Counted from the first letter of the stretch, positions 9,444 through 32,567 are shown. The stretch: DNA of 64,000 nucleotides from Bacteroidales bacterium (GCA_963668715.1 OY764960.1:719602-783601), one strand, 5' to 3'. Notes: generated by a model from the letters alone, not told the origin. Numbers and translations are program-made.

Positions 9444-9456
9444 AAAGCTCCTTTAT

Positions 9457-10326: not shown

Positions 10327-10348
10327 TGTCGGTTTTTGTTGTTAATTA

Positions 10349-10750: not shown

Positions 10751-10822
10751 CTTGCTTTTCAGATTAAAGAGTAAATTCAGTTTAGTAATATACTTCGTAA
10801 ATATATCTTATCTAAAGATGAG

Positions 10823-10838
10823 TGCATATGTGGAGCCG
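10823..10838 (-). promoter_or_regulatory. Candidate sigma-54 (-24/-12) promoter for the cytochrome operon
   Basis: The minus strand reads cGGCTCcacatATGCA against the consensus TGGCACG-N4-TTGCW. GG-N10-GC spacing is preserved, with mismatches at the other consensus positions. About 74 nt upstream of the ATG and directly downstream of an NtrC-type activator gene. Confidence 0.4.
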
Positions 10839-10883
10839 CAAATACATTTACATATATATAACTGATCTTTATGGCGTTTATAA

Positions 10884-10897
10884 TTGACATAAGTCAA
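10884..10897. promoter_or_regulatory. Perfect palindrome TTGAC-ATAA-GTCAA (candidate enhancer-binding-protein site)
   Basis: 14-bp dyad about 46-59 nt upstream of the candidate -24 element. A further attgacg half-site lies near 10930. Confidence 0.3.
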
Positions 10898-11030
10898 TGT
10901 TTTTGATATTATTTAACGTATTTATTGCACATTGACGTATTATAGAAGTACAGCCCCCGGCCATGTGTCCCGGTTGCCTGAGGTCGACAGGATCAACAAT
11001 GACAGTACAGGTTATTAACAGTAAGGACAA

Positions 11031-12416: not shown

Positions 12417-12417
12417 A

Positions 12418-13941
12418 TTACTGAGTTAAAGGTAACCGAATTATACATCTCACACCACCCTCTTCATAATTGAAAATGGTTAGTTCGCCATTATGCGCTT
12501 TTATAATTTGTTCGGAGATACTAAGCCCCAAACCCACTCCTGATTTTTTAAGAGTAAAGAAAGGTACAAAAATTTCATCCAATGCTTCTTCAGGTATTCC
12601 TGATCCGGTATCTGTTATTTCGATAACTACAGATTCATTCACCGGATCATATTCTGATCTCACATTAATCATTCCTTTTTCATGTAATGACTCATATGCA
12701 TTATTAAGGATATTTATCAATACCTGTTTTAATGAATTCTCGTCAGCTTCAATAACAGGTATATCAGAAGACAGGTCACATTCAATAATAACATCTTTCC
12801 CTTTGTTTCCCAGGTCCATGAATCTGATTATCTCATCAAGCAAGGAACTGATATCTGTTTTCTTGATATTTTTTTCAATAGGGCGTGAAAAGATGAGCAG
12901 CCTGTTAACAAGTAAGGAAAGCCTGTTTATCTCATCATTAACCAGTTGCATCGAGTCCTCTGATATAAGTGATGCGGTATCAGGATGTTCTTCAAGTTTC
13001 TTCTGCCACATCTGTATCCTGGTCTTTATTATAGCAAGAGGAGTTCTTACTTCGTGAGCCACACCGGCAATTACCCTGCCCAAAGAGGCCATTTTTTCTT
13101 TCTGTACCAGTCTGCTCTCCAGTAGTTTCTTCTGCCTGTCTTCTTCTTCGATGGTGTCAAGCATCATATTGACATTAGAAGCAATATATTTAAATATACC
13201 CCACCTGTTCGTCAGTCTGAGCGAAGTATTCTGACCGGCTCTTTTAAGTTCGTTCCTTATGCCTCTGATCTCTCCGGCCCATACAGTCGAGATAGTCATT
13301 AATATGAGGAAGCCTCCGACAGCAAAAATGGCAATTATAGATACTATCTTCTTCATCTTTATTGCAGGGAGATCCCGCTCTATATGTATCCTGACCCATA
13401 CCGCACCAATAATCCTGGAATCATAGTATACAGGACGTGAAGCGAGGGGAAAAGTAGCCGGATCAAAAGAGTGCAGGCCAATTATAAGGGTGTCTTTTTC
13501 TATTGATCTGACGACCTGATCCCTGATAATATTATAAGACCTTGGAGGCGGACCGTATGCAGGTACCGGCGGAGGGGAAGTTGGAAAGGAATAACCGAAA
13601 AATTCATCCTGGGCAATCAGGTAATATGAAGCTTCCAGCCCCTGCCGCACCTTCATCTGTTCGGAAGTAACCATCCCGAGTCTGTTTTCAAGTAAGGTTC
13701 TTTCGCGGGATGTCAGGTCATCCTTGTCCAGGAGACCCGATTGCCCGAGCCGTTCTATTTCATCAGTTCCCGCATCATATAAACTGTTAAGGTAACTTTT
13801 GCAAACCTGCTGACTTTCTTCAACCAGCTTTACTTCCCATTTTGATAACGATATGTAGATAACAACAGTGACCAGTACAACAATAACGGTAAAGGTTATT
13901 GAGTAAAAGAATAATGAATCATATAGACGGTGTAACTTCAT
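12418..13941 (-). CDS. Sensor histidine kinase (two TM helices, periplasmic sensor domain, HisKA + HATPase)
   Basis: H-box AHEVRTPLA, N/G boxes (NILNNAYES, DTGSGI, GVGLGLSI), TM helices near residues 10-32 and 200-222. Its stop lies 1 nt from the regulator start. Confidence 0.9.
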   Translation of the reverse strand: MKLHRLYDSLFFYSITFTVIVVLVTVVIYISLSKWEVKLVEESQQVCKSYLNSLYDAGTDEIERLGQSGLLDKDDLTSRERTLLENRLGMVTSEQMKVRQGLEASYYLIAQDEFFGYSFPTSPPPVPAYGPPPRSYNIIRDQVVRSIEKDTLIIGLHSFDPATFPLASRPVYYDSRIIGAVWVRIHIERDLPAIKMKKIVSIIAIFAVGGFLILMTISTVWAGEIRGIRNELKRAGQNTSLRLTNRWGIFKYIASNVNMMLDTIEEEDRQKKLLESRLVQKEKMASLGRVIAGVAHEVRTPLAIIKTRIQMWQKKLEEHPDTASLISEDSMQLVNDEINRLSLLVNRLLIFSRPIEKNIKKTDISSLLDEIIRFMDLGNKGKDVIIECDLSSDIPVIEADENSLKQVLINILNNAYESLHEKGMINVRSEYDPVNESVVIEITDTGSGIPEEALDEIFVPFFTLKKSGVGLGLSISEQIIKAHNGELTIFNYEEGGVRCIIRLPLTQ

Positions 13942-13993
13942 GGCCCCGGGTACCGGAAAATGTAATTATAAAAACACGAATAATTAGTTTTAT

Positions 13994-14001
13994 CAAAGAT
14001 A
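13994..14001 (-). promoter_or_regulatory. Candidate -7 promoter element TATCTTTG (TAnnTTTG) upstream of the kinase gene
   Basis: Exact TAnnTTTG match on the minus strand, about 50 nt upstream of the kinase ATG, in the 74-nt gap after the racemase-like gene. Confidence 0.3.
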
Positions 14002-14015
14002 CATAACATACCTTA

Positions 14016-15008
14016 TTAAAAAATGTCAGGTATTATTCTGTAATTGAGAAGCGCCTTTGCCAGTGACGGTGACTCATTTTTAAAGATCTCAATCATTGAA
14101 TTTACATTGACAAGCTCAACCTTTGAAACAACAAGAAACGAGATATCCGTATGGGAATACCTGTTTTTGTTTTTATCATTAATTAATACATCTGCCATTA
14201 ACATATTGGGATTAAGCATATCTCTCAAATTATACCCTAAGTCTGCCATTGCCTTTCTCCACAGATCCTCCGAATATCCGAAATGACTGCAGTTAAGGCT
14301 TAAATACACCGGAAGAGAAGTATCATCAATATATGAAAGTGCTTCAGACAGGTAAAATGAAATAAGCATTTCTGTTTCCTCTCCTCCCGGATCCTGTTCA
14401 ATATATGACTGCAACTGGGGGCAGGCCTGTGTAATAATCCTTTCTTCCTCATAGTGCATATCCAGCAAAGCCTTCTTATGGTTATTTTCAGTAATTGTCG
14501 TTTCCGTACCAAGTATAATTACTTTTGAATTACTGTCCTTATCAAGGCTTTCCGCTATCATCTTTACCCCGGCATCCACAATTCCTATAACAGGAGGATT
14601 ATTTTTCTGTCTGACAAAACGGGTATCATTGATAAAAACGGATAAAGTATTACAGGCAACAAAAATGAGATCGGGATGATATTTTTGATTAATCCCGTTA
14701 AGGACATTATTAAAAACTTCTATTTTCTTATCTCTTGTTTGCAAAGCATTATATCCTGATTTTGCATCAAAAAGAGCATTCACAAATATCAGTTCGGCTT
14801 CTTTATAAGCTCTCAGATCCTCCAGCTTATCTGCAATACTGTTCAGGACGGATAACCCTCCGGTACCGGAATCTGTTACGACGATCCTGATCTTTTCCTT
14901 TTCATATAAGCTGTCCTGTTCTGTGTTTTGTTTATATATTATATCTCCTTTCACAACTGAGCAGGCAAACATTGACAATAACAGAAAACAAATAGGTCCT
15001 TTTTTCAT
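14016..15008 (-). CDS. Glutamate racemase-like protein (Asp/Glu racemase superfamily) with N-terminal lipoprotein-type signal
   Basis: DSGTGGLSV near the N-terminus. Both catalytic Cys contexts are retained (VACNTLS, LNCSHFG). The N-terminus MKKGPICFLLLSMFACS resembles a signal plus lipobox. An alternative start at M13 would remove it. Confidence 0.7.
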   Translation of the reverse strand: MKKGPICFLLLSMFACSVVKGDIIYKQNTEQDSLYEKEKIRIVVTDSGTGGLSVLNSIADKLEDLRAYKEAELIFVNALFDAKSGYNALQTRDKKIEVFNNVLNGINQKYHPDLIFVACNTLSVFINDTRFVRQKNNPPVIGIVDAGVKMIAESLDKDSNSKVIILGTETTITENNHKKALLDMHYEEERIITQACPQLQSYIEQDPGGEETEMLISFYLSEALSYIDDTSLPVYLSLNCSHFGYSEDLWRKAMADLGYNLRDMLNPNMLMADVLINDKNKNRYSHTDISFLVVSKVELVNVNSMIEIFKNESPSLAKALLNYRIIPDIF

Positions 15009-15115
15009 ATTATAAGCGCTGTTTTAAGGAACCAGGGGCCCCATTGCTGAAAACTCCAGCAATAACAGCCCCCGGTTTATTATTAATCAAATCCCATAAC
15101 GGATCTTTTGCTTTA

Positions 15116-16492
15116 TTATTCAAAGATCCATAAACGCTGAGTAAGATTGGTAACAGTAGGTACGTTAGCCCCGTTATACGATATTTCAGACTGAGGATAA
15201 GGAAAGCGTTGCGGTATTTCACCTGCCCCCGGCACGGGAGTCAGGTCTGGAAACCCTGTTCTCCTGTAATCTTCATAAGGCACCACGGTTGAATACATGG
15301 CAATATATTTCTGTCCCATTATCTTTTCAATTGAAATTGAGGTCCCGTCTTCTGTTCTGATATTAGCATCAAGCCATGCCTCATTATCGGAGCCATCAGT
15401 CACATAATCAACAGAAGATTCAACAGCAGCGATATAAGCATCAGTTGCATCATCAGCTGATCCGGAAGTTCTCAGGATACATTCCGCTTCAATAAATTTC
15501 ATCTCGGCATAAGAGCTGAATAATACCGGCGCTTCCGGCGTATCATTATAGTCACCAAGATCAGAAACATTTGCATCTTCTGAACCAGGTGTACTGCCTG
15601 TATATCCTCCTCCCGGCGCTTCATCGGCATAAAACGGTAATCTTGGGTCACTTACATCATTTAGCATGTCAATAAATGTTGAACACATAACTATATCGGC
15701 GCCCCATGCTGAAGTAGTATTATACTGATAGATCGGGTTAGCTTCGTTATTCTCTGTTCCGAAATCCACCTTGAATAAATCACCTTCTCCTAATCCGGAA
15801 GCAAGGTAACCCAGCGCTCCGGTATAATTATCCATATAAAGTGCATATCTGGCTCTTAAAGAATAAGCGGCTTTGATCCATTCGTCAACATCACCGTCAT
15901 AAATAAGGTCCCCTTCAACATCAAGTGAGCTTTCATCCGACTGCAGCTCTGTTATAGCTTCCTCCAGGAGGTCATCTATTGCAGTGTATATATTCTGCTG
16001 CGAATCGTATGCAGGAGTTAATTCGCCCTTACTGCCCATGAGAGCTTCAGTGTATGGCATATCTCCAAACAAGTTGGTCATGGTTCCCAGGCTCATGGCC
16101 AGGCATACTTTGGCAATCCCGCTATAATGAGGTTGTCCCTGTTCTTCTGCGTATTCAATAATACTTGCAGCATCCATCATGCCCTGGTAATACATTCTCC
16201 TCCAAAAATCATCCACATCAGTTGTTGCCAGGCCATAATTTGCTTCGCTGTTTGAGTTCCTGCTGACACCATTTATTTGTTGCATAAAGATAGCTGTTGT
16301 TTTAACAGCCCTGTTGCCTCCTATATGATATGCCAGCGATAGTTCCATTGATGTCACCATCAGTTCCATAGGCACTTCCGATGGTTTATCCGGGTCAATA
16401 TTAAGATCCGGATCAATCCACTTCTCACATCCTGTAAAAAACAGGCTGAACATTAGCACCACCGGTACAGTATATTTAATATATTTTTTCAT
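15116..16492 (-). CDS. SusD/RagB-family outer-membrane lipoprotein
   Basis: Lipoprotein signal (FSLFFTGCEKW), ~458 aa, immediately downstream of a SusC-type gene, helical-repeat-like composition. Start chosen at MKKYIKY. Confidence 0.8.
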   Translation of the reverse strand: MKKYIKYTVPVVLMFSLFFTGCEKWIDPDLNIDPDKPSEVPMELMVTSMELSLAYHIGGNRAVKTTAIFMQQINGVSRNSNSEANYGLATTDVDDFWRRMYYQGMMDAASIIEYAEEQGQPHYSGIAKVCLAMSLGTMTNLFGDMPYTEALMGSKGELTPAYDSQQNIYTAIDDLLEEAITELQSDESSLDVEGDLIYDGDVDEWIKAAYSLRARYALYMDNYTGALGYLASGLGEGDLFKVDFGTENNEANPIYQYNTTSAWGADIVMCSTFIDMLNDVSDPRLPFYADEAPGGGYTGSTPGSEDANVSDLGDYNDTPEAPVLFSSYAEMKFIEAECILRTSGSADDATDAYIAAVESSVDYVTDGSDNEAWLDANIRTEDGTSISIEKIMGQKYIAMYSTVVPYEDYRRTGFPDLTPVPGAGEIPQRFPYPQSEISYNGANVPTVTNLTQRLWIFE

Positions 16493-16522
16493 TTTTCTGA
16501 ATATTAAGTTCAACACAATCGT

Positions 16523-19500
16523 TTAGAATGACAGTTTGATGCCAAATAAATAGGTCTTGCATCCGGGACTGGCAAAATAATCGAAACCCTGTCCGTTTGA
16601 TGCGCCGTAAACATTAACTTCAGGATCACCGCCCATATAAGGAGTAATAATGAAAAGATTATTACCCGTAGCATACACTTCTAAGCCTGAAAGATGCAAT
16701 TTGGAAAGGATTGAACTACCAAATTTATATGATAGTGTTATCTCCCTCACCTTTATCCAACTGGCATCTTCGACTCCCTGGCTGGCTGCTCCTCCGCTAC
16801 TGAAGCTGTTTTCACCCCTGTACCAGTCCTGATCTTTTATCACTTCCATCGTGTTTTCAACACCTGATGATACCACATTACCATCAGCGTCGAGATGCCC
16901 AAGCACTCCCTCAAATACGGTAGGTGTTGTCCTGTCCAGTGTTTCCTCTGTCAAACCATGATAATTAAGTCTGAACCGTGTACCATTATATACTGAGCCC
17001 CCTTGTTTGATATTAACAAGAGTAGTAAGGCTTAATCCCTTAAATGATAGTATATTGTAATAGTTCATTGTCCAGTCGGGATTAACCTTTCCAAGGACAA
17101 CTGTTTTTGTTTTATCAGTCCAGGGGAAGCCATCGGGATGACTATCGGTAGGATCATCATTTATCAGAACATTACCATTTTCATCCCTGTACCAGTCGAA
17201 TCCGAATATACTGGGATAATCATAACCTACAGCAGCATTTATCTGTGCTTTGGTATCGCCGTTAAGAGTAACAAATTCAACATCTTCAGCCAGTGAAGTA
17301 ACAGGGTTTTCCATCTTCGTATAACTTAAAGTAAAGTCCCAGGTAAAATTACCTGTCTTTACCGGGGTTGCATTAAGGCTCAGTTCAATACCTTTACTTT
17401 CCATTGTGGCGGCATTAAGGTAAGCCGATGAATAACCTGTTGAGCCGGAAATCGGGACTTGCAGCAATAACTCGCTGTTCTCATTATAGAAATACGATAC
17501 ATCCAGTCCTATCCTGTTCATAAAAAAGCGCAGTTCGGTACCTATTTCAAAAGATGTTTGTTTTTCATGCTGAAGATCGGCATTCCCTATAACATTATCC
17601 ACGGTAAATCCGGAGTAACCTAAAAACGGGAACGTTATACCGGAAGTGTAATAATCATCAGGAGACGACACACTGTAATATGAAGTTGTCATGTAAGATC
17701 TGGCTATATTAGCCGTTTTGGCCCATGAAGCTCTTAACTTACCGAAGGTAAGGAAACTAAGATCTTTCAGAGCATCCAGTTCAGTAAATACAAAAGATCC
17801 GCTGAACGAAGGGAACATGGCATTCATACTGTTCTCAGGCATTGTTGTAGACCATTCATTACGCAGTGTAGCCCCTAAGTAAACCATGTTTTTATAGTCA
17901 ATACCCAAATCCCCGTATATAGCTGCCGTACGGTATTCGCTTGTACCCTGGCTGGCTGTCTGTGAACCTGTATTATCTATATTATACAATGTAGGCAATG
18001 ACAGGCCGACAGTAGATGCTGTAAGGTAATTATAGCTTTTCTGGAACATGTTCTGACCTATTATAAGGTTAAGCCCTAAGTCATCCCAAATATTTTTGTT
18101 AATGACAAGCATAACGTCTGAATTGAATATCGAGTGGAATTCTCTTCTTTCGGTAAGGTCTCCGTCTCTGTGCCCAACGCTGTTCCAGTTGTATATGGTA
18201 GCATAGCCTCTGTGGTACCAGTCAATACCAACATTATACTTGAATGTTAACCAGTCGGTCAGTTGCCAGTCGAGAAAAGTACTACCAACAAATCTGTTGT
18301 TTTTATCCAGTTTGCTTTGTTCATATGCTGTCCAGTAAGGATTATTATATGAACCATTGGCGCCCCTGTGGGTCCTTTGCCTTCCGTCTTCCAGTTTGTA
18401 GCCGGCAGCATTATCAAAAGTTGCAGGAGTACGGTACAATCCAAGAAGCCCTGAAGATGTTCCTCCTTCTCTTACCAGGTTGTTTCTTGTGTTGGCATAC
18501 ATAACATTAACGCCTGTCTTAATCTTATCTGTCAGTTTCGTATCAGCATTAAGTCTTACCGTTGTTCTGCCGAAAGTATTTGTCGGAATTATCCCTTCCT
18601 CTTCAAGATTACCTATCGAGAAAAAATATGATGAGTATTCATTTCCTGCTTCAATACTTACGTTATTGTTATAGCTGAGTCCTGTATGAAAAAAATCATA
18701 CTGATCATACCTGTTAACAGGTTCACCTGTAGCATTTGGATCATTCTCACTTACAATAGCACCGTCAACATCGAACTCAGGTTTGGTCCAGACAGATGGG
18801 TCGAGCGAGTAGCTACATGTATCAAGCCATGGTCCCCATGCAGCATCGTAACCTGACTGCCAGTTCCCATTCCTCCCCTGTCCGTATTCATTCTGCAGAG
18901 GTATCCGCCTACCCAACTGCTTAATCCCCAGTGATGAATGTATATTGACTTTCATCTTCTGGTTATTTGATCCTTTTTTTGTGGTTATCACAATAACACC
19001 ATTTGAAGCCTGCAAGCCATAAAGGGCAGTTGCAGCACCGCCTTTAAGCACTGTCATAGAGGCAATATCCTCGGGGTTAAGGTCAATACTCCTTGAAGAG
19101 GTATAAGTACCGGATTGTCCGGTGCTACCACGATAAGACTCATCAGTATCAATAGGCATACCGTCAATAACAAACAATGGCTGATTATTACCGGTAAGCG
19201 AAGCTGCTCCCCTGATGGTCATGTAAGTAGATGCGCCGGCAGCACTGGATGTACTGTTGACTTGCATTCCTGCAACTTTACCGGCCAGGGAATTGACAAT
19301 ATCGGCATTCCCCCTCCCTGATATTTCATCAGACTGTACCTCCTGAACATTATATCCAAGAGCTTTCCTGTCCCGGGTAATACCCAATGCTGTTACAACA
19401 ACATCCCCCAGTTCAACCGTTCCTGCATCCATAACAACATTAAGCACATTGCCGGTAATTATAACTTCTTTTGATTTCATCCCTACGAATGAAAATACAA

Positions 19501-19705
19501 GCGTTTCATAGCCCTGTGGTACTGTAATTGAGTACTCACCAAGGTCGTCCGTGTTGGTCCCTACGGAGGTCCCTTTCACGGATACAGTCAGGTAGGGCAA
19601 AGGATTACCGTCGGTATCGGTAACTTTGCCCGTAACTACCCTTTGACCATGCACATTTATCAATATGCAGGTCAAAATAGCAATTAAAAGCAATGACTTT
19701 TTCAT
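16523..19705 (-). CDS. SusC/RagA-family TonB-dependent outer-membrane transporter
   Basis: 1060 aa. N-terminal carboxypeptidase-regulatory-like domain (VTGKVTDTDGNPLPYLTVSVKG), TonB box region (DVVVTALG), plug and barrel, C-terminal ..FGIKLSF. Confidence 0.92.
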   Translation of the reverse strand: MKKSLLLIAILTCILINVHGQRVVTGKVTDTDGNPLPYLTVSVKGTSVGTNTDDLGEYSITVPQGYETLVFSFVGMKSKEVIITGNVLNVVMDAGTVELGDVVVTALGITRDRKALGYNVQEVQSDEISGRGNADIVNSLAGKVAGMQVNSTSSAAGASTYMTIRGAASLTGNNQPLFVIDGMPIDTDESYRGSTGQSGTYTSSRSIDLNPEDIASMTVLKGGAATALYGLQASNGVIVITTKKGSNNQKMKVNIHSSLGIKQLGRRIPLQNEYGQGRNGNWQSGYDAAWGPWLDTCSYSLDPSVWTKPEFDVDGAIVSENDPNATGEPVNRYDQYDFFHTGLSYNNNVSIEAGNEYSSYFFSIGNLEEEGIIPTNTFGRTTVRLNADTKLTDKIKTGVNVMYANTRNNLVREGGTSSGLLGLYRTPATFDNAAGYKLEDGRQRTHRGANGSYNNPYWTAYEQSKLDKNNRFVGSTFLDWQLTDWLTFKYNVGIDWYHRGYATIYNWNSVGHRDGDLTERREFHSIFNSDVMLVINKNIWDDLGLNLIIGQNMFQKSYNYLTASTVGLSLPTLYNIDNTGSQTASQGTSEYRTAAIYGDLGIDYKNMVYLGATLRNEWSTTMPENSMNAMFPSFSGSFVFTELDALKDLSFLTFGKLRASWAKTANIARSYMTTSYYSVSSPDDYYTSGITFPFLGYSGFTVDNVIGNADLQHEKQTSFEIGTELRFFMNRIGLDVSYFYNENSELLLQVPISGSTGYSSAYLNAATMESKGIELSLNATPVKTGNFTWDFTLSYTKMENPVTSLAEDVEFVTLNGDTKAQINAAVGYDYPSIFGFDWYRDENGNVLINDDPTDSHPDGFPWTDKTKTVVLGKVNPDWTMNYYNILSFKGLSLTTLVNIKQGGSVYNGTRFRLNYHGLTEETLDRTTPTVFEGVLGHLDADGNVVSSGVENTMEVIKDQDWYRGENSFSSGGAASQGVEDASWIKVREITLSYKFGSSILSKLHLSGLEVYATGNNLFIITPYMGGDPEVNVYGASNGQGFDYFASPGCKTYLFGIKLSF

Positions 19706-19804
19706 AAATTAATTTTTAGGTGAATGATTAAGGTTTAGTATTGATATTTAAAATTTGTCACTAATTGTTATTCATCTTTAGTATTGTTTTTATTACAAGT
19801 ATCG

Positions 19805-20860
19805 TCAGTTCAAATTATTTCTTTTCAGAAATACAAGAGGGAACAATTCGACAAGGAGTATAATAGCCAGAAGGCCCTTCCTTGTATGGTTATGCGTATA
19901 CAGGTTCGTCGACTCAGAGTATCTTATACCCGGCGAGACATCTATGCCATACCGGCCTGCAAGACTCTTAATGTCCAGCAGGTTGATAAAAGGTATATTG
20001 TTTTCGCTCATTCTGGTTATCAGCCCCCTGTTGATATCAGAGCAACCTTTATAATCCATGACCAGGCCGTTGGGTATTGTTGTAGAGTGGGGACAGGCCC
20101 CAAGGGCCGTCTGATTTCCGCCTATATTAATAAGAAGTGAAATATGAGCCTCTGAAAATATTTCCTCTTTCTTCTTAATTGATTCCGGCAGGTCCTCCGG
20201 AACATAAAGTTCAATATGGTTCCTTTCTGCTGCTTCATAAATATGAGCTATACCTTCCCCGGAAAGCCCATCGCCTGAATCTCCATTCGCTCCAATGGTT
20301 ACCAGTGATGAATGATATTTCATCCCGCCATCACTGATAAGCCCTGATTCGATATCTATCCATGTAACATCCGGCTGATTGGCTCCATAGGTTGAAGATC
20401 CAAGAGAGCTCATTAATATAACTTCTGCTCCGGTTGTCTGAAGAGCGGCAAGCGTTGATATTGCAAGAGAAGGGAAAGACCCTGAGATAATCATTCCCAC
20501 ATAATCACCTTTTTTTATTCCTGCCTCTTTAAGCAACCTGACTATCAGGGCTGAAAAATCAGGATTTGATGATATTTCCTTTGCTTCAAGAGAACCGAGT
20601 GTAGTAGTGATATCCGACCATTCATCTCCAATCATATAATAATACGGAACATTTGAATGAACATACTCTGTGATACCTTTTTCTGTCTTAAGGTCTTTAA
20701 CAACTGAAAACCACGATTCGGTAAGGGCAATGGCCTTTCTCATAGTACCTGTATTGTCTACAGAATTTTTTACTATCAGAAATTTCTGAACGGCAATGGT
20801 GCCACAGAGTATCAATACAAATACTATAAGCAACCTTATGTTCAGACTTAGCTTCTTCAT
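19805..20860 (-). CDS. Third PGA-system component: bitopic membrane protein replacing PgsA/CapA (likely the family annotated as poly-gamma-glutamate system protein)
   Basis: 4-nt start/stop overlap with pgsC. TM helices at both termini with a large domain between them. No resemblance by eye to Bacillus PgsA. The family name is recalled from memory and not verified. Confidence 0.5.
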   Translation of the reverse strand: MKKLSLNIRLLIVFVLILCGTIAVQKFLIVKNSVDNTGTMRKAIALTESWFSVVKDLKTEKGITEYVHSNVPYYYMIGDEWSDITTTLGSLEAKEISSNPDFSALIVRLLKEAGIKKGDYVGMIISGSFPSLAISTLAALQTTGAEVILMSSLGSSTYGANQPDVTWIDIESGLISDGGMKYHSSLVTIGANGDSGDGLSGEGIAHIYEAAERNHIELYVPEDLPESIKKKEEIFSEAHISLLINIGGNQTALGACPHSTTIPNGLVMDYKGCSDINRGLITRMSENNIPFINLLDIKSLAGRYGIDVSPGIRYSESTNLYTHNHTRKGLLAIILLVELFPLVFLKRNNLN

Positions 20861-21285
20861 GTAAAAAATATTGAGAGCTGGAATACTATCAGTGTTACTA
20901 TTCCCAGCCCGAGAGTTGTTGATGCGATATTCTGTTTTGACATCTCATTGGCAATAAGGCCCGGTATTATATAGCCGACTGACTGAAGGTCTATCTTCAT
21001 TATATCCATAGGTTGAATCTGAGTCTCAACAACCAGTTTCAGGACAAACCCAAGCAATACTGCCAGTAAGAATTTTCTTCTTCCGTAAAGGATCAGCCTT
21101 GAAGAGAGGTATCTGATAATAAGATACACTATCAGGGCAATCACTATTGTCATTAATATTTTCCAGGGGTCATAAACAAAGAGGGCACAATAGGCCGGAG
21201 CTATAACTCCGCCCGGAGATATTCCCGTCAGTTCATAAAAAATGAATCCGACGACTATTCCGATCAAAAACAGATGCAGAATCAT
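20857..21285 (-). CDS. pgsC: Poly-gamma-glutamate biosynthesis membrane protein PgsC/CapC
   Basis: 142 aa and polytopic. Shares ILYGRRKF and IIPGLIAN blocks with Bacillus PgsC. Overlaps both pgsB and the next gene by 4 nt. Confidence 0.88.
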   Translation of the reverse strand: MILHLFLIGIVVGFIFYELTGISPGGVIAPAYCALFVYDPWKILMTIVIALIVYLIIRYLSSRLILYGRRKFLLAVLLGFVLKLVVETQIQPMDIMKIDLQSVGYIIPGLIANEMSKQNIASTTLGLGIVTLIVFQLSIFFT

Positions 21286-22421
21286 TTTAACATTTCAATA
21301 ATTGTACTCCCTCCCCCTCCTATATTACCGATGCCTATCACAAGGGACTTATCCGGAACCCTGTCGGCAATAATCTTCTTTATCCGTGGGATATCTGTCT
21401 TTTTACATCTATGAATCCTGTTTTTACAGGTAAAACTGTTTTTCAGACGGCTCGCTGCCCTTCTGAAATGCGTACCGGAAATAAAAACATGGTCGATTGA
21501 AACCGACATCTCATTGATCAGCCCGACAAGCTGATCAGTACGGAACGGGCGGTCAGCCCTTGTATTAAGCAAAACCGAATAATTCCTTTCATAAGATATT
21601 TCCGAACGCCAGTGATCTATAAATGATCTTGTCGAATCAATATCGTTCACCGGAAATCCATTAAGGAAGCTTATCTCTTTTTCCCCGTATCTTACGGTAA
21701 ACAAGGGCGATTCGGTTTTTTCAATAAAACTGATAATTCTCTCTGTTGCCTTCTTCATATCAAGCCCTGCTTCACGGCATACGGTCAGAGCGAGAGCCAC
21801 ATTATCAGAGAATACGCCCCCGGGCAGGTCTCTTAAACATGTTTTATCAGGAATATCCGTTAATACTACCAGGCTATTCTTTTTTTCCGCTGTTTCCCTT
21901 ATAAGGCTGATATAATTTGATTCACTGGTGACAACCCGGCAGTTGTTTGGGATAGCCCTGCATATTGACCTGGCCTGATCATCAATTGTGTTTCCCATCA
22001 CCTCGCGGTGATCGTCTTTTATATTTGTAATAACATAAATATGAGGTTTGAATATCCTGCTTTCAAGTTGCTGAAGTTCAGGAGAAACTGACATACATTC
22101 AAGAACCATGCTATCGGCTTTTTTCCGGGCAGCATATCTCATTATGTCAAATTGCTCCTGAACCCTCGCTACTCCTAATCTAAATAAAACATCTTTTTTT
22201 TCTCCCGAGCCGACAGCAGGTATTACTCCTGTTATTTTAGATATAATATTTGCATCAGGGCTAAGCAAACCTGCGGCAATATATTCCGTAACAGACGATT
22301 TGCCTCTGGTTCCATTGACATGTACCCTTAAGTTTATTGCTGTCACACTCTTATTCACAATCATTCTCTCAACAATGAGAAAACCAATGCTAATACACAG
22401 TATGACAATCGGGAGGATCAT
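21282..22421 (-). CDS. pgsB: Poly-gamma-glutamate synthase PgsB/CapB (Mur-ligase-like amide ligase)
   Basis: N-terminal TM helix. Collinear by eye with B. subtilis PgsB in four blocks: VHVNGTRGKSSVTEY P-loop, ECMSVSPE, NGFPVNDIDST/NTRADRPFRT, and the GIGNIGGGG tail. Confidence 0.9.
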   Translation of the reverse strand: MILPIVILCISIGFLIVERMIVNKSVTAINLRVHVNGTRGKSSVTEYIAAGLLSPDANIISKITGVIPAVGSGEKKDVLFRLGVARVQEQFDIMRYAARKKADSMVLECMSVSPELQQLESRIFKPHIYVITNIKDDHREVMGNTIDDQARSICRAIPNNCRVVTSESNYISLIRETAEKKNSLVVLTDIPDKTCLRDLPGGVFSDNVALALTVCREAGLDMKKATERIISFIEKTESPLFTVRYGEKEISFLNGFPVNDIDSTRSFIDHWRSEISYERNYSVLLNTRADRPFRTDQLVGLINEMSVSIDHVFISGTHFRRAASRLKNSFTCKNRIHRCKKTDIPRIKKIIADRVPDKSLVIGIGNIGGGGSTIIEMLK

Positions 22422-22469
22422 ATTTACATATTATTTAAGTCATTTCTGTCAGGGTCAATCCATAAATAC

Positions 22470-24170
22470 TCAATATCCTTTTGCTATTCCTCCTCTTCGC
22501 TTATCAGCAGATCCGTAGTATAGTCCTGTTTCAGGGTCGACATATATCATCTGTGCCCCTCCGAAGAACAGGTCTATGCCTTCATACACTTTCAGGTTAT
22601 GGCCCATTTTTTCCATTTCGGCAATTACTTCGGGTTTTATTCCGGATTCCAGATGAAGGAAATCATCATGCTTTCTGCAATAGAAACGCGGAGCAAGGTT
22701 TGCTTCACCGACATCCATCCCAAAATCTACGACATTTATAATAAGCTCGAACAATGTTCCTATTATCCTGCCTGCACCGGGGCTACCGACCACCAGGAAC
22801 GGATCTTTCTTATTTAACAGTATTGTAGGAGCTATTGAGCTACGGCATTGCTTACCGTTCTCAAGCGTATTTGGTGTTTTTGAACTATATGAATAATTCG
22901 TCATTGCACAATTGAACAATACTCCTGATATTGTCTGTGCCGAACCAAAAAATAATCCCAGCGTCTGAGTAAGAGCCACTGCATTACCATACTTATCAAC
23001 GACTGAAAGGTGTGTGGTATGACCTCCTTCCATTTCAGGTTCCGGGACATAAGCGTCAGAGGTTTTTATTTGGAAATTAAAAGGATCGCCTGATTTAGCC
23101 TTCCTGTAGGTCGGAGGATCAAGCTTTTCAGGATTTATAGAGTTGAACCTTGCCCTTGCATATTCCTTCGATATCAAAACATCGACCGGTACATTGACAT
23201 AATCAGGATCGCCAAGGTAATCGAAACGGTCGGCATACATTAATTTGGAGGTCTCTGCCATCATATGAAATGTATGTGCCGACTCACTGTAATGGCCCGA
23301 GCTTTTCAGGTCAATATTTTCTATCATATTAAGGCCTTCCAGAAGAGTTAAACCTGACTCAGGCAGGTTTGCAGTGAGTATATCATGGCCGCGATATGTA
23401 CCCTTAAGAGGCTTGTCGAGCTTTGGCTGATAAGTTGAAAAATCATTGATTGTCATAACTCCTCCCCTTTTCTGTATCTCGTCGACAAATATCTTCCCAT
23501 ACTTACCTTTATAGAAACCATCACGGCCTTCACGGGCAATTGTTTTAAGTACCAGGGCAAGTTCCTTTTGTACGATCAGATCACCTTCCATTTTTGGAAA
23601 GCCGTCATCGGTAAATGTCCCGGCAGTATTCCCGTCAGCTGTAATAATCTCTACATTGTCAAGGATCAGTCCTGCCAGAGTAGCATCAATATGGAAACCG
23701 TTTTCGGCATAACGAATAGCAGGTTCAAGAACTTCTGAGAGAGACAGGGTGCCGAATTTTTCAAGCGCCATGGTCAGACCTCCTACAGTACCAGGCACTC
23801 CTATCGCCTTTACAGTGCGGGCATCCCTGTCACTGTCGAATCCCAGATCCAAAGCATTCTCAGAGCTTCTGCCATAATAGTTTATGAAATACGACTCTCC
23901 GGTTTCTTTAAGGTAGATCACCATCCCTCCACCACCTCCGATACCGGATCCGTCGGGTTCAACCACACCGATCGTAAATGCGGCCGATACTGCAGCATCA
24001 ATAGCATTACCTCCTTTCATGAGCATCTCAAGAGCTGCCTCTGTTGCCAAAGGATGAGCTGTAGCGACCATCCCGTTTTTTCCGGACGGTGTCGACACAG
24101 ACTGTGAAGCCAGGGGAAGGTACAGTACAAATGAAAGAAGCAGTATAAGATTAACAGGTTTTGTTCTCAT
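22470..24170 (-). CDS. ggt: Gamma-glutamyltransferase family protein (GGT / CapD-like), exported
   Basis: Signal peptide. GGT blocks: GGNAIDAAV, PDGSGIGGGGGMVIY, the autoprocessing/nucleophile region GGHTTHLSVVD, and GSPGAGRII. Confidence 0.9.
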   Translation of the reverse strand: MRTKPVNLILLLSFVLYLPLASQSVSTPSGKNGMVATAHPLATEAALEMLMKGGNAIDAAVSAAFTIGVVEPDGSGIGGGGGMVIYLKETGESYFINYYGRSSENALDLGFDSDRDARTVKAIGVPGTVGGLTMALEKFGTLSLSEVLEPAIRYAENGFHIDATLAGLILDNVEIITADGNTAGTFTDDGFPKMEGDLIVQKELALVLKTIAREGRDGFYKGKYGKIFVDEIQKRGGVMTINDFSTYQPKLDKPLKGTYRGHDILTANLPESGLTLLEGLNMIENIDLKSSGHYSESAHTFHMMAETSKLMYADRFDYLGDPDYVNVPVDVLISKEYARARFNSINPEKLDPPTYRKAKSGDPFNFQIKTSDAYVPEPEMEGGHTTHLSVVDKYGNAVALTQTLGLFFGSAQTISGVLFNCAMTNYSYSSKTPNTLENGKQCRSSIAPTILLNKKDPFLVVGSPGAGRIIGTLFELIINVVDFGMDVGEANLAPRFYCRKHDDFLHLESGIKPEVIAEMEKMGHNLKVYEGIDLFFGGAQMIYVDPETGLYYGSADKRRGGIAKGY

Positions 24171-24204
24171 TATTATTCTGTATTGAGGTTAGTTATTGAG
24201 GTCT

Positions 24205-24750
24205 TCATTTGAATAGTTTTCCCATAGGTGTAGCTGCATCAACTATCTTTTCAACGAGAGTAAGAGGTATGCCATTCTTTTTTGACAGTTCGGTGAAAAA
24301 TCCGTCCTCATCGGCCTGCTTGACAACTATCATCTCCTTAGCATTATCTGCAACAAGAGTATTGAATGCATCTGACTGGCCCTTTCTGCGGGCATTACCT
24401 CCGATATGCATCAATACAATAGGTATCTCTTTTTTGTTAGCGGCCTCAATAAGAGCAACCACACGGTCATATTCTTCCTGCTGGCTTACTCCTGCAGCGC
24501 CAAGGCCCTTTGAGCTGAACCCGGGAACAATAATAAGGGTCTTAATGCCTTCCATATCCTGTTCAGTGGCCATCAATACCGTATTGGCATTCAACTGTTG
24601 CCGCTGTGCCAGCATCTTCACAAGTTTTACATCAGCGCTCTGACCTGCTGAAGAGATCAGGATTGGTTGCTCAAATTTCTGAGCACTGATCATTGACGTT
24701 GAAACAACCGCAACAATCAGTAATACAATCTTTAATACTATATTCTTCAT
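24205..24750 (-). CDS. Exported protein of unknown function (181 aa)
   Basis: Clear signal peptide and an alpha/beta-like pattern (ILISSAGQSAD.., LIIVPGFSSKG.., IVLMHIGG). No family assigned with confidence. Confidence 0.6.
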   Translation of the reverse strand: MKNIVLKIVLLIVAVVSTSMISAQKFEQPILISSAGQSADVKLVKMLAQRQQLNANTVLMATEQDMEGIKTLIIVPGFSSKGLGAAGVSQQEEYDRVVALIEAANKKEIPIVLMHIGGNARRKGQSDAFNTLVADNAKEMIVVKQADEDGFFTELSKKNGIPLTLVEKIVDAATPMGKLFK

Positions 24751-24762
24751 ACTGAAAATTAT

Positions 24763-25887
24763 TTAGTTATGTAAATAAGTTCCGACTCCGTTATTCATCA
24801 TCTCATCATATGAAGGAAGGCCCGATACCATTATCTGTTTATCAGGATAAGACATATTATAAGCATTGATCAGCTCAATAAATCCGGTAATATGCCTTCC
24901 GACACGATGTTCAACAGGCTCACCCGTTTCCTCCCTGTATGCAATCCTTAACGCTCCCGACTGCTTTGCTTTACTGTAATTCTCACTATATCCCCTTAAC
25001 ACGAGGTCAACATCAGTTTCTGCCCTCAGCCTGCCCATCGACGGGTTACTGGTCTCCATAAGGAAAGGTATAACATCAGTATAGTCGCCCCACTCCCGAT
25101 GGCTCAGTCCATGAAAGTTTTTTGGTGACAGCTCGGGAGAGAACTGCAGGCCTGCAAACTCCAGACCAAGGACTGCATTCATAGCTATCTCTTCATAATC
25201 CTCATGATAAACGATTACATTTACAATTGGCACTTCAGGAGACGATTCATGTATATCAAAAGCTATATCTACCTTCTCCTTTTTTATCATCTGAACAATA
25301 GCATATGCAACTTTCTGGGTTAAAGTCCCGTCAGCTTTCCCCGGATATGCCCGGTTTAAATTTCTTGTTTCAAAACCTGACAACTGCTGGCCGGAGGGAT
25401 ACTGGGCGCATACAAGCGGGTCAGGCCACTGGTGCAGGGGATTTGTTACTCTTGAGCCCAGTCTGAACACCCTTGACCCTTCAGCAGTTTTAATCTCATA
25501 ATGTGTGGGGAAGCCCTCCATAGGGTCGCTGCATGTGAATGCGCTGTTATTAAGCCTTGGAATAACAATAACCCTTCCGCTGAGCACCTCTATATTTTCC
25601 AGAATAACAACAGGCGCCAGAAAAGCAGCAGCCTCATTGGGATGCGCTCCTCCACCGATAAAAGCAGTACCACCCGGGACGCCGCTGTCATATATATAAA
25701 CCTCCGTATCTCCTTCCGTTCCTTTGATAGCATCAAAATAGTCGCTCAGCATAGTTTTCCTTGTAAGTGATTCGCTTGGGTAAATTGCTTCCGGCTTATG
25801 CATCTTCCTGAACTCAAGCGATGCAACTACGGCAGCATATGCAAATACGACAGATATTATTATGGTTGATATATGATTCTTCAGCAT
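24763..25887 (-). CDS. Succinylglutamate desuccinylase/aspartoacylase (AstE/AspA, M14-like) family zinc hydrolase, membrane-anchored or exported
   Basis: N-terminal TM/signal anchor, HxxE zinc motif (GGGAHPNEAAA), a later DIHES motif, 374 aa. Confidence 0.65.
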   Translation of the reverse strand: MLKNHISTIIISVVFAYAAVVASLEFRKMHKPEAIYPSESLTRKTMLSDYFDAIKGTEGDTEVYIYDSGVPGGTAFIGGGAHPNEAAAFLAPVVILENIEVLSGRVIVIPRLNNSAFTCSDPMEGFPTHYEIKTAEGSRVFRLGSRVTNPLHQWPDPLVCAQYPSGQQLSGFETRNLNRAYPGKADGTLTQKVAYAIVQMIKKEKVDIAFDIHESSPEVPIVNVIVYHEDYEEIAMNAVLGLEFAGLQFSPELSPKNFHGLSHREWGDYTDVIPFLMETSNPSMGRLRAETDVDLVLRGYSENYSKAKQSGALRIAYREETGEPVEHRVGRHITGFIELINAYNMSYPDKQIMVSGLPSYDEMMNNGVGTYLHN

Positions 25888-25893
25888 AATTAT

Positions 25894-26043
25894 TTATTTA
25901 ATTTGAAAAAGACGCAAAAGGAATACCATGAGCACCATGGCCATAGCCACTTTGTTCTTCCATTTTTTCTCCCTGATAAACTCAATTACCACAACATAAG
26001 TTATGTAAGCAAGTATTATTGTATATATAATGTACATTATCAT
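25894..26043 (-). CDS. Small hydrophobic protein (49 aa), below the ORF-track cutoff
   Basis: Translated by hand: MIMYIIYTIILAYITYVVVIEFIREKKWKNKVAMAMVLMVFLLRLFQIK. Two hydrophobic segments. 9 nt after the permease stop and 6 nt before the next start. Confidence 0.4.
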   Translation of the reverse strand: MIMYIIYTIILAYITYVVVIEFIREKKWKNKVAMAMVLMVFLLRLFQIK

Positions 26044-26052
26044 TTTTCAGGT

Positions 26053-27318
26053 TTAAAAAATTAAATTAGATATCTCCTGGGCAAACACAAGTATCAGGAT
26101 GCCCACGGCCATTGATATAGCTATAGGTATCAGGCAAACCTTCAGTATCTTGAAGTGGTTCTTCTCCTCAATTATCTGTGAGGAGTAAGCGCACAGCAGT
26201 GCCGGCGGAGGCATAAGGTCGCCCAGGGCTGCCATCAGTACCAGGGCAGAAGTGACCACCAGTGCACTTTTCCCTATAAAAACATAAACAAGAGGAACGC
26301 CTATTACCGAAGCTGAGCCATAGGCCGAACCCATAAAAGGCATTATGGCGGCTGCAAAATACCTCAGTCCTTCAGGCAGATTAAGCGCCACTACTGCCAG
26401 ATAACCCCTTACTCCCGTAAGAGCCATGCTCTGAAGGAACATGCCTACTCCTATCAGGATGGCCATAACAGGCATAGCGCTTCTTAAAGCTTCTCTTGAA
26501 ACAAGAACAAAATTTAATTTCCTTTTAGTGAATAAGCCCATGATGGCTCCTATCATAAAGATGAGGGGGACTCCCAGATGAGGCAGAATATTATGGAAGC
26601 GTATCTCTCCTATCATATATAATATCACGAAAAACAGAGGCAGGTATACAGTGAAAGGCAGTTTCTCCTCTTTGGAACTCTCAAGCATCTCCTTTACCTT
26701 TTCCGTATTATATCCTGATAAATACCTGTATCTGAAATAAAGAGCCACTATTATGGCAACAGGAAAGGATGCAATAAACAGTGGCCAGCCAAATCCTATA
26801 TAAGGCATGTCAACACCACCGCCGATAATCATCACCGGTATACTAATAGGGGGAGCTACTTCACCGAATACGGCAGCCATGGCTATCAGCCCCCCCACTG
26901 CATGTTTTTTCATTCCGATCTGTAATAATATAGGCGCAGCCAGAACTCCTGTAGTGAGTATACATGTCGATGAAAGCCCTGTCAGCATTCCGGGGAACAT
27001 AACAAAAAAGGTTATTATGATAACCAGTAATGTAGGGCTCCTGTAAAACAACCTCAGTATTCCGTAGCTTATTCCTTTCAGTGCCCCGGTGGCATCCATT
27101 ACACGCATGAAAATCATTGCACTGGAGATGATCATTATTGCTTCCAGAAATCCGAACCCCCCTTCAACAAAATGCCTTAACGGTATTCCATGCCCTCCTG
27201 CTATTGTTCCGATAATTGCAGATAACATCAAAGATACACCGGCAGGCATTTTTAAAACAAAAACACTGACAGCAAATGTTGCAAGCATGCATATAAGGAT
27301 AATCAACTCTATGCTCAT
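26053..27318 (-). CDS. Polytopic permease, DctM-like (TRAP large-subunit / ion-transporter superfamily)
   Basis: 421 aa with ~12 TM helices and a DctM-like pattern (AMIFMRVMDATGA.., FPGMLTGLSSTC..). No DctP or standard DctQ gene is adjacent. Confidence 0.5.
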   Translation of the reverse strand: MSIELIILICMLATFAVSVFVLKMPAGVSLMLSAIIGTIAGGHGIPLRHFVEGGFGFLEAIMIISSAMIFMRVMDATGALKGISYGILRLFYRSPTLLVIIITFFVMFPGMLTGLSSTCILTTGVLAAPILLQIGMKKHAVGGLIAMAAVFGEVAPPISIPVMIIGGGVDMPYIGFGWPLFIASFPVAIIVALYFRYRYLSGYNTEKVKEMLESSKEEKLPFTVYLPLFFVILYMIGEIRFHNILPHLGVPLIFMIGAIMGLFTKRKLNFVLVSREALRSAMPVMAILIGVGMFLQSMALTGVRGYLAVVALNLPEGLRYFAAAIMPFMGSAYGSASVIGVPLVYVFIGKSALVVTSALVLMAALGDLMPPPALLCAYSSQIIEEKNHFKILKVCLIPIAISMAVGILILVFAQEISNLIF

Positions 27319-27342
27319 AAGTACTAAGGTTTATCCTAACTA

Positions 27343-27358
27343 ACCAAATGACGTGCCA
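27343..27358 (-). promoter_or_regulatory. Near-consensus sigma-54 (-24/-12) promoter upstream of the PGA/GGT/Sus gene run
   Basis: The minus strand reads TGGCACGtcatTTGGt against TGGCACG-N4-TTGCW. The -24 element and spacing are perfect; the -12 element has GG instead of GC. It ends 25 nt upstream of the permease ATG. Confidence 0.55.
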
Positions 27359-27410
27359 TAATTCGTATACTACTGCTCATCAGCATGATACAATATGCCA
27401 GTCATTAAAA

Positions 27411-27428
27411 AACACTTGTAATAGTGTT
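27411..27428. promoter_or_regulatory. Inverted repeat aacact-N6-agtgtt (candidate activator site)
   Basis: 6-bp arms, 53-70 nt upstream of the -24 element on the minus strand. Confidence 0.25.
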
Positions 27429-27540
27429 GATTGTTCCCAGCATACCGGGCTGTATCAGCCCATAGTGAAAGCCGTCCGGTAAGGCTTCATACACTGTCTT
27501 CAGTTAATATGCTGTTACTTCGGGTATGATGTAATAGACT

Positions 27541-27555
27541 ATCTGTCAAACAGAT
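27541..27555. promoter_or_regulatory. Inverted repeat atctgt-caa-acagat (candidate activator site, contains TTGACA on the minus strand)
   Basis: Dyad about 185-200 nt upstream of the candidate sigma-54 promoter, in the 364-nt divergent intergenic region. Confidence 0.25.
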
Positions 27556-27682
27556 GTGTCCATATTAATATCTTACCGGATAATACAGCTGCCAGGCATA
27601 TTGAAATAAAGTTTTACTTTGGCCTCTTTTTTGATATCAGGCCAATGACAAATTAGTCTGTTAATTAAATTATTATCACCAC

Positions 27683-28600: not shown

Positions 28601-28615
28601 CCTCAAAGTGCAATT

Positions 28616-30394: not shown

Positions 30395-30419
30395 TTTAAA
30401 TTTTATTTAATTAATACTT

Positions 30420-31214: not shown

Positions 31215-31222
31215 AAAGGGAA

Positions 31223-32545: not shown

Positions 32546-32567
32546 ATCCTTATTTTTAAAGGCGGGT

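Follow-up and report, generated by a model that had tools for sequence, protein, structure and literature searches.

A conserved locus of Bacteroidales and other lineages joins a poly-gamma-glutamate synthase to predicted hydrolysis and uptake genes

We describe here a locus in a 64,000-nt stretch of DNA from a Bacteroidales bacterium (GCA_963668715.1 OY764960.1:719602-783601; this whole stretch is called the window, and coordinates are counted from its first letter). The locus joins the three genes of a poly-gamma-glutamate (gamma-PGA) synthase, pgsB, pgsC and pgsW, to genes encoding a permease, a 49-aa membrane peptide, an AstE-like hydrolase, a DUF6305 protein, a gamma-glutamyltransferase (GGT), a SusC/SusD pair and a racemase-like protein, with a sensor kinase and a sigma-54 regulator on one side and a gene for an N-formylglutamate amidohydrolase-like (FGase-like) protein on the other (Table 1). 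What appears to be new is the conserved and so far undescribed association of a known synthase with an uptake/hydrolysis module, to which Bacteroidales add a layer resembling a polysaccharide utilisation locus (PUL).

An earlier note on this DNA, made from the sequence alone, had reported eleven open reading frames (ORFs) on the minus strand with two start/stop overlaps of 4 nt. ORF listing and translation confirmed this: eleven consecutive ORFs, all on the minus strand, occupy 14016-27318, the overlaps pgsB/pgsC (21282-21285) and pgsC/pgsW (20857-20860) are exact, and every motif quoted in the note (VNGTRGKSS, ECMSVSPE, NTRADR, GIGNIGGGG, ILYGRRKF and IIPGLIAN) is found in the translations. 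From the permease gene to pgsB the gaps are 9 (permease/49-aa peptide), 6, 12, 34 and 48 nt (GGT/PgsB), and from pgsW onwards they are 99 (pgsW/SusC), 6 (SusC/SusD) and 107 nt (SusD/racemase-like). The base composition is even throughout the region, which thus bears no sign of a recent insertion, and a scan of window positions 10000-29000 against Rfam found no RNA families. The limits first drawn, 14016-27358, proved too narrow, since the kinase, the sigma-54 regulator, the promoter and the FGase-like gene also belong to the conserved unit.

The 379-aa and 142-aa products had been read as PgsB and PgsC, and searches with profile hidden Markov models (HMMs) placed both above the curated cut-offs. 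PgsB matched TIGR04012 over residues 5-377 (257.4 bits, cut-off 222.7) as well as Mur_ligase_M, and is 30.5% identical to CapB of Bacillus anthracis (capBCADE of pXO2). As its P-loop (G37-T-R-G-K-S42) and the residues N133/D137/H138 and N286/R288/D290/R291 are kept across 76 homologues, PgsB is, on sequence criteria, the predicted ATP-dependent amide ligase of the gamma-PGA synthase. PgsC matched TIGR04011 (120.3 bits, cut-off 96.45) and the Pfam family CapC (PF14102, 126 bits), shows four hydrophobic segments and is 38% identical to CapC. The 4-nt overlaps that link pgsB, pgsC and pgsW are retained in relatives.

The third gene had been described as bitopic and not PgsA-like, and both points hold. 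No similarity of its product to CapA was detected (E 0.17) and none of the locus products matched PGA_cap; instead, the protein matched TIGR04332, 'poly-gamma-glutamate system protein', with 276.8 bits (cut-off 100), for which the symbol used by the NCBI annotation pipeline PGAP is pgsW. Hydrophobic helices lie at both ends, at about residues 6-24 and 328-346 by hydropathy and as transmembrane (TM) helices 6-28 and 328-348 in an AlphaFold2 (AF2) model. In this model (mean confidence, pLDDT, 85) an alpha/beta domain stands between the terminal helices, and by the positive-inside rule it is predicted to face the periplasm. PgsW matched no Pfam domain, and a Foldseek search against the PDB gave no match with a TM-score above 0.3. 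A kinship of PgsW with the DUF6305 protein was considered and rejected (hhalign probability 1%). The family comprises about 970 clusters (50% identity, E<=1e-10). Four longer members were seen (P0288, P0345, P0376 and P0380): one is a tandem duplication of 618 aa, and three continue for about 320 aa beyond the C-terminal TM helix; no Pfam domain and no functional hint was found in these extra parts. It has been reported that B. subtilis makes PGA from PgsBC alone, PgsA being dispensable (PMC6029982), and a synthase lacking PgsA is therefore plausible. Judging from gene content, PgsW is the predicted occupant of the place of PgsA.

The neighbourhood of pgsW was compared by scanning with a PgsW alignment, one genome per species; the best 80 loci of each scan were retained, which makes this a sample and not a census. 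ORFs were called in each locus and searched with the window proteins, and the counts given below use the 43 loci that are flanked by 7 kb or more on each side. The scan loci span Bacteroidales, Ignavibacteriota, Zixibacteria, Krumholzibacteriota, Marinimicrobia, Lentisphaeria, Calditrichota, Atribacterota and Bacillota. Beside pgsW, pgsBC was present in 41 of the 43 loci, the DUF6305 gene in 40, the AstE-like and GGT genes in 39 each, the permease in 37 and the 49-aa peptide in 29. The racemase-like gene (26/43), the FGase-like gene (24/43) and the kinase/regulator genes (21/43) followed, and SusC/SusD was found in 18, all of them among the 23 Bacteroidales loci. It had been left to a comparison of neighbourhoods whether these genes flank pgsBC by accident; they do not, as the gene order recurs in dozens of genomes.

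The reverse test, in which metagenome contigs were anchored on a narrow DUF6305 alignment, showed that the DUF6305 gene always adjoins the permease and AstE-like genes, and usually GGT too; about 10 of 14 well-flanked loci had pgsBCW no farther than 10 kb away. In four loci (L150, L152, L154 and L160) the run GGT-DUF6305-permease-AstE-like was found with no pgsBCW within 10 kb. Two others (L124 and L134) carry one copy of the module on one strand, and a second, divergent copy together with pgsBCW on the opposite strand. On a megaplasmid of Cetobacterium somerae (Fusobacteriota) the genes run in the order ggt, DUF6305, 'TRAP large permease', a 47-aa ORF in the place of the 49-aa peptide, 'succinylglutamate desuccinylase', pgsB, pgsC and pgsW. 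Bacillota loci such as those of Oscillospiraceae likewise hold the permease, AstE-like, DUF6305, GGT and pgsBCW genes together. In all, the eight-gene unit occurs in Bacteroidota, Ignavibacteriota, Zixibacteria, Marinimicrobia, Calditrichota, Atribacterota, Fusobacteriota and Bacillota. The system had been called diderm-adapted, but its occurrence in Bacillota means that the core is not specific to diderms; the SusCD layer is the only part specific to Bacteroidales.

Several of the genes that accompany the synthase encode predicted hydrolases. GGT exceeded the cut-off of TIGR00066 (448 bits against 357.85), scored 450 bits with its Pfam family (PF01019), and keeps the catalytic Thr385-Thr386 pair across 69 homologues. 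Its 32% identity to B. anthracis CapD (E 7e-66) and its adjacency to pgsB in those 39 loci point to a CapD-type role as PGA transpeptidase/depolymerase. The AstE-like protein matched AstE_AspA_cat (PF24827) only over residues 174-240 (30.1 bits, cut-off 25), and its PDB matches, which cover the same partial stretch, are succinylglutamate desuccinylase/aspartoacylase and DoeB (E 5.6e-7 to 8e-3). Residues H82, E85 and H213, the motif RNLNR (175-179) and E278 are kept across 60 homologues, and the zinc ligands H82/E85/H213 together with RNLNR align with 3na6. Since it has a conserved N-terminal hydrophobic anchor and a basic N-terminus, its catalytic domain is predicted to lie outside the cytoplasm. 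A second, short (about 285 aa) and divergent AstE-like paralogue, 24-31% identical, was observed in Melioribacteraceae, Calditrichota, Marinimicrobia and Lentisphaeria (L063, L065, L069, L146, L147, L048, L050, L052 and L055), either beside pgsW or between two GGT genes; many of the loci that bear it have two GGT genes.

The FGase-like protein, which has a signal peptide, scored 27.3 bits with Pfam FGase (PF05013), just under the cut-off of 28.9. Its homologues score 22-34 bits, two of eight exceeding the cut-off, and a profile of the family gave no match against the PDB. Residues H53, D154, H156, E166 and E267 are invariant in 20 homologues, and we consider the protein a putative metal hydrolase similar to N-formylglutamate amidohydrolase. 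In two loci (L023 and L029) the sigma-54 element is followed by its gene, which there heads the operon. Most Bacteroidales relatives have, after the regulator gene, a second FGase-like paralogue with a type IX secretion system (T9SS) sorting domain.

The racemase-like protein matched Asp_Glu_race (37.5 bits, cut-off 31) and fell below the MurI equivalog TIGR00067 (73.6 against 146.65 bits). It aligns to MurI structures, and D46-S47-G48, C119-N120-T121 and C240/H242 are kept across 32 sequences. A signal or lipoprotein peptide is present in the window protein and in nearly all of the 31 homologues with a readable N-terminus. The earlier note had drawn a parallel with RacE, which supplies D-Glu for synthesis; this parallel is contradicted by the export signals, since an exported racemase cannot feed D-Glu to a cytoplasmic PgsB as RacE does. 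More likely it handles released D-Glu or, more speculatively, epimerises the polymer. Export signals or membrane anchors are thus carried by GGT and by the DUF6305, AstE-like, FGase-like and racemase-like proteins; those of GGT, DUF6305 and FGase-like proteins of diderms are cleavable signal peptides, often ending in A-Q.

The permease shows about 12 hydrophobic segments by hydropathy. It matched Pfam DctM only over residues 5-165 (28.9 bits, cut-off 23.8), and gave no match in NCBIfam and no sequence match in the PDB; its Cetobacterium orthologue is named 'TRAP transporter large permease subunit' by PGAP. Matches to the DctQ and DctP families were absent among the locus products. It had been regarded as an orphan, but across loci it travels with the 49-aa peptide, the DUF6305 gene and the AstE-like gene. 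The peptide has two hydrophobic segments, always lies between the permease and AstE-like genes, and is 31-83% identical in the 29 loci that have it. That it might be an analogue of CapE was rejected, given its constant permease partner and the lack of any alignment to CapE.

The DUF6305 protein matched its family (PF19823) with 165 bits (cut-off 25); among its homologues, those of diderms have a signal peptide and those of Bacillota a lipobox. The AF2 model (pLDDT 88) is a flavodoxin-like alpha/beta fold, for which Foldseek returned only weak matches of SGNH-esterase or flavodoxin type (TM-score about 0.3-0.47). Residues G36, Q37, S79, K81, G82, E93, R96 and G118 are invariant and R121/R122 nearly so, a pattern compatible with binding of a carboxylate ligand but not diagnostic of it; a binding or accessory protein and an enzyme are both candidate roles. 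A Ser-His-Asp triad is unlikely, as S38 and H115 vary in distant homologues, and a similarity of residues 62-135 to the loop-2/helix of dihydropteroate synthase (E about 3e-5, in PDB and NCBIfam) covers one strand-loop-helix and was taken as a local resemblance.

In Bacteroidales an outer-membrane layer is conserved. SusC, a TonB-dependent outer-membrane transporter of SusC/RagA type, matched TIGR04056 (613 bits, cut-off 368) and contains Plug and CarboxypepD_reg domains; SusD matched SusD-like_2 (227 bits, cut-off 27) and is an outer-membrane lipoprotein. SusC occupies the same position, with 64-82% identity, in 18 of the 23 well-flanked Bacteroidales loci, SusD being conserved with it; the spacing of the two genes is 6-30 nt. 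No match to glycoside hydrolase, lyase or esterase families of carbohydrate-active enzymes (CAZymes) was found in the locus, and its hydrolases are all of amidohydrolase types.

Upstream of the permease gene lies a -24/-12 element, TGGCACGTCATTTGGT, which ends 24 nt before the permease ATG. It reads TGGCAC-N5-TTGG, with one mismatch to TGGCAC-N5-TTGCW, and one other site in the window comes equally close. The same element precedes the first gene of the operon, whichever gene leads, in at least 17 related Bacteroidota loci; in one of them (L024) that gene is pgsB. When the intergenic region was aligned with those of five related loci, the core positions of the element were invariant while the remainder had largely diverged. 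One of the few other conserved blocks, some 65-115 nt farther upstream, is a candidate enhancer (upstream activating sequence, UAS) at which the sigma-54 activator would bind. The kinase is AtoS-like, with HisKA and HATPase_c domains, and its TM helices 10-28 and 199-217 enclose a periplasmic loop of about 170 aa; the regulator is AtoC-like (447 bits), with Response_reg, Sigma54_activat (222 bits) and HTH_8 domains. Both are conserved in 20 of the 23 Bacteroidales loci. With a conserved promoter and an activator encoded in the locus, the operon would be sigma-54-dependent. Scans for sigma-70 promoters and terminators did not rise above shuffled expectation, the consensus patterns being ill-suited to Bacteroidota. 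On C. somerae plasmid p1 (L161; NZ_CP143320.1 403968-416202) the core is preceded by a second ggt and by a different two-component system, an ATP-binding protein with a short response regulator that is not of the sigma-54 type; the regulatory layer has thus been swapped between phyla.

Table 1. Genes and other features of the locus, in window coordinates
Feature	Position	Strand	Remark
FGase-like gene, 305 aa	27683-28600	+	divergent from permease
Candidate UAS block	27424-27461	-	intergenic alignment
-24/-12 element TGGCACGTCATTTGGT	27343-27358	-	upstream of permease
Permease, 421 aa	26053-27318	-	ORF
49-aa membrane peptide	25894-26043	-	ORF
AstE-like, 374 aa	24763-25887	-	ORF
DUF6305 protein, 181 aa	24205-24750	-	ORF
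GGT, 566 aa	22470-24170	-	ORF
PgsB, 379 aa	21282-22421	-	ORF
PgsC, 142 aa	20857-21285	-	ORF
PgsW (third synthase gene)	19805-20860	-	ORF
SusC, 1060 aa	16523-19705	-	ORF
SusD	15116-16516	-	GTG-started ORF; likely ATG at 16492 (MKKYIKY...FFTGC)
Racemase-like, 330 aa	14016-15008	-	ORF
Sensor histidine kinase	12418-13941	-	downstream of racemase-like gene
NtrC/AtoC-type sigma-54 regulator	11031-12416	-	downstream of kinase

Some further features were observed within and around the locus. In the gap between the SusD and racemase-like genes, a GC-rich imperfect hairpin, GGGGCTGTTATTGCTG...CAGCAATGGGGCCCC, was seen by eye at 15020-15075, with no T-run downstream; it could be an element of mRNA processing or stability, or an internal regulatory site. 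At 7320-10750 on the minus strand, immediately beyond the sigma-54 regulator, are genes for cytochrome-c-type/multihaem proteins and a DUF5777 membrane beta-barrel; in most related loci this position is taken by the T9SS-tailed FGase-like hydrolase (for example L001:19847-21019). Farther on, at 7016-7266, a tandem array of 31 copies of the 8-nt unit TTCCATTA (98% matches) lies between two minus-strand genes and yields a spurious plus-strand repeat ORF of 125 aa. On the other side the locus is flanked, at 28616-34317 on the minus strand, by a cluster of acyl-CoA dehydrogenase, CCG-domain/FeS oxidoreductase and EtfA/EtfB genes, which may have to do with the fermentation of amino acids or glutamate. 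In L001 and L090, too, the locus is adjoined by the dehydrogenase and CCG genes, this conservation being limited to close relatives.

The reading that we favour, and hold to be moderately probable, is that one sigma-54-controlled operon both makes and reclaims gamma-PGA. Family assignments, catalytic residues, export signals, gene order and the conservation of the promoter are established by sequence; from these we infer the substrates of the accessory proteins and the direction of transport. Working at the inner membrane, PgsB, PgsC and PgsW would join glutamate into a chain and deliver it to the periplasmic side, where GGT would remove or transfer gamma-glutamyl units. The AstE-like and FGase-like hydrolases would cleave amide bonds of the N-acyl-glutamate type. 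The AstE/AspA and FGase families have N-acyl-Glu or N-acyl-Asp amides as their known substrates, and succinyl-glutamate and gamma-Glu-Glu are one amino group apart; action on gamma-Glu-Glu is thus suggested by analogy with succinyl-glutamate. The exported MurI-like racemase may interconvert the freed D- and L-Glu, and the DctM-like permease with its 49-aa partner, probably with DUF6305 as an extracytoplasmic accessory, would carry the product into the cell. In Bacteroidales, SusC/SusD would in addition import oligomers through the outer membrane in the manner of a PUL, and the periplasm-sensing kinase and the sigma-54 activator would drive the promoter upstream of the permease. Two options had been offered in the earlier note, coupling of synthesis with outer-membrane handling and recapture with periplasmic breakdown of the polymer. 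The second fits better, as the accessory enzymes are all exported and relatives have a T9SS-secreted hydrolase.

It must be taken into account that several points weigh against this reading. A synthase and hydrolases expressed from a single promoter look futile unless they form a turnover or storage system, and the locus has no gene for an outer-membrane exporter. Family matches by HMM are weak or partial for the permease and for the AstE-like and FGase-like proteins, the folds of PgsW and DUF6305 bring no functional clue from the PDB by Foldseek, and the T9SS-secreted FGase-like paralogue of the relatives was not found in the window. Co-transcription of the locus, across the gaps of 99 and 107 nt in particular, is itself a prediction. 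Moreover, 15 loci that lie outside the Bacteroidales-type arrangement (14 of other or unassigned lineages and the rearranged Bacteroides locus L034) yielded no sigma-54 element when checked in the permease orientation.

A bolder form of the make-and-reclaim reading, which we advance tentatively and regard as somewhat doubtful, is that the polymer serves as a private extracytoplasmic reserve of glutamate. Gamma-PGA would be parked in the periplasm or around the cell and reclaimed by dedicated, largely uncharacterised machinery across many diderm and monoderm phyla, and the Bacteroidales locus with its SusCD would be the first 'polyamide utilisation locus'. That machinery would comprise PgsW and DUF6305, a permease of a new, DctM-like kind and its 49-aa subunit, gamma-glutamyl hydrolases of the AstE-like and FGase-like types and, as the first of its sort, an exported racemase/epimerase of the MurI family.

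The alternative that survives best, although we think it unlikely, is that the locus serves only the synthesis and remodelling of a capsule or matrix. PGA would then be produced for export and anchored or trimmed by a CapD-like action of GGT, the AstE-like and FGase-like proteins would tune chain length, and what the permease, DUF6305 and SusCD import would be glutamate or Glu-rich peptides as precursor and not the polymer. B. anthracis capD is indeed co-transcribed with the synthase, and the resemblance of the window GGT to CapD is noted above; many Bacillus PGA producers require exogenous glutamate (PMC4928254), and a preprint on Cloacimonadota (10.1101/2025.11.11.687785) reports cells embedded in PGA-stained material. 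However, the four loci in which the module stands apart from pgsBCW argue that it works as a unit of its own, and three or four exported amidohydrolases, an exported racemase and a T9SS-secreted paralogue, laid out as in a utilisation locus, exceed what trimming needs.

Those module-only loci would also suit a second alternative, the scavenging of gamma-glutamyl polymers or peptides from other microbes, in which PgsBCW re-polymerises the imported glutamate into a protease-resistant private reserve. The PUL-like architecture with a periplasm-sensing kinase is what such a function would lead one to expect, and the AstE-like protein (49% identity) and the permease (41%) are closer to their Cetobacterium counterparts than PgsB (35%) and PgsC (31%) are. 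Nevertheless, the module accompanies pgsW in about 90% of its loci, and the synthase is present in about 70% of the loci with the module, which speaks for one integrated function and not for an add-on, and we give scavenging little chance of being the main function. We find it very improbable that the locus runs an uptake route like the gamma-glutamyl cycle, in which GGT would take gamma-glutamyl units from extruded PGA and transfer them to external amino acids or peptides, while the permease imports the resulting gamma-glutamyl compounds and PgsBCW re-polymerises the glutamate. This would account for an obligatory co-expression of synthase, transpeptidase and permease from one promoter, but the predicted outward orientation of the AstE-like protein leaves the locus without a cytoplasmic hydrolase and each transported molecule would cost one ATP; moreover, no bacterial precedent for such a cycle is known. 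Finally, a mere juxtaposition of unrelated genes around pgsBC, for which one could invoke internal promoters in the 99-nt and 107-nt gaps, is refuted by the order recurring in dozens of genomes, the core being spread over many phyla and the full set being present in 18 of the 23 loci from Bacteroidales.

The biology of gamma-PGA has so far been almost entirely that of Bacillus, Gram-negative bacteria and uncultured anaerobes being represented by a three-gene cassette only. That the synthase is usually embedded in a conserved eight-gene unit adds to this picture. If the make-and-reclaim reading is true, it offers testable functions for PgsW, for DUF6305 and for the permease together with the 49-aa peptide, three families as yet uncharacterised, and predicts both an extracytoplasmic glutamate racemase and new gamma-glutamyl hydrolases, which would be useful in PGA processing. 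It would also widen the SusCD/PUL paradigm from glycans to a polyamide, and would have a bearing on the ecology of sediments and anaerobic digesters, in which PGA could act as a matrix and nitrogen store, either shared or privatised.

A search of the literature on DUF6305, PF19823, TIGR04332, PgsF, pgsW and PGA with SusC/PUL found no relevant paper on the whole unit. What appears new is the integrated reading; the gene families are already named one by one by PGAP and Pfam. In comparison with B. anthracis capBCADE and B. subtilis pgsBCAE with pgdS/ggt, the locus shares the PgsB and PgsC homologues, a GGT gene beside the synthase as with capD, and the joint presence of synthase and depolymerase. 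It differs from them in that CapA/PgsA and CapE/PgsE were not detected and PgsW is present instead, and it adds the permease, 49-aa peptide, DUF6305, AstE-like and FGase-like proteins, an exported racemase, SusCD and a sigma-54 two-component system. The three-gene synthase with its translational overlaps is that of the Gram-negative pgsB-pgsC-pgsW cassette (TIGR04332; Fusobacteriota). PGA production by a Gram-negative has been shown in Fusobacteriota (Candela 2009, as cited in PMC4928254), and a three-gene operon 'CapB, CapC, PgsF' has been described in the Cloacimonadota preprint mentioned above, the one paper found to deal with the Gram-negative arrangement. Unlike this cassette, the unit described here has five accessory genes, annotated but uninterpreted until now, and its Bacteroidales form adds SusCD, the racemase-like and FGase-like proteins and sigma-54 control.

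The transport part recalls TRAP (tripartite ATP-independent periplasmic) systems of the DctPQM type in its weak DctM match, its PGAP name, a small membrane peptide and an exported or lipoprotein partner. It departs from them in giving no DctP or DctQ match, and in that DUF6305 is a single flavodoxin-like domain of about 158 residues and not a two-lobed binding protein. With PULs and the RagAB peptide importer of Bacteroidota the locus shares adjacent SusC and SusD, periplasmic exo-acting hydrolases (so predicted here), an inner-membrane permease, a co-located sensor-regulator and, in relatives, a T9SS-secreted enzyme. Unlike PULs, it would act on a polyamide, lacks CAZymes and pairs a classical kinase with a sigma-54 activator, and it is unique in encoding the synthase of its presumed substrate. 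For reserve polymers, glycogen and cyanophycin among them, it is typical that synthase and hydrolases are encoded side by side, and the operons glgBXCAP and cphA/cphB likewise combine synthase and degradative enzymes. In contrast to these, the polymer and all the hydrolases would here be extracytoplasmic, so that a dedicated re-import would be needed.

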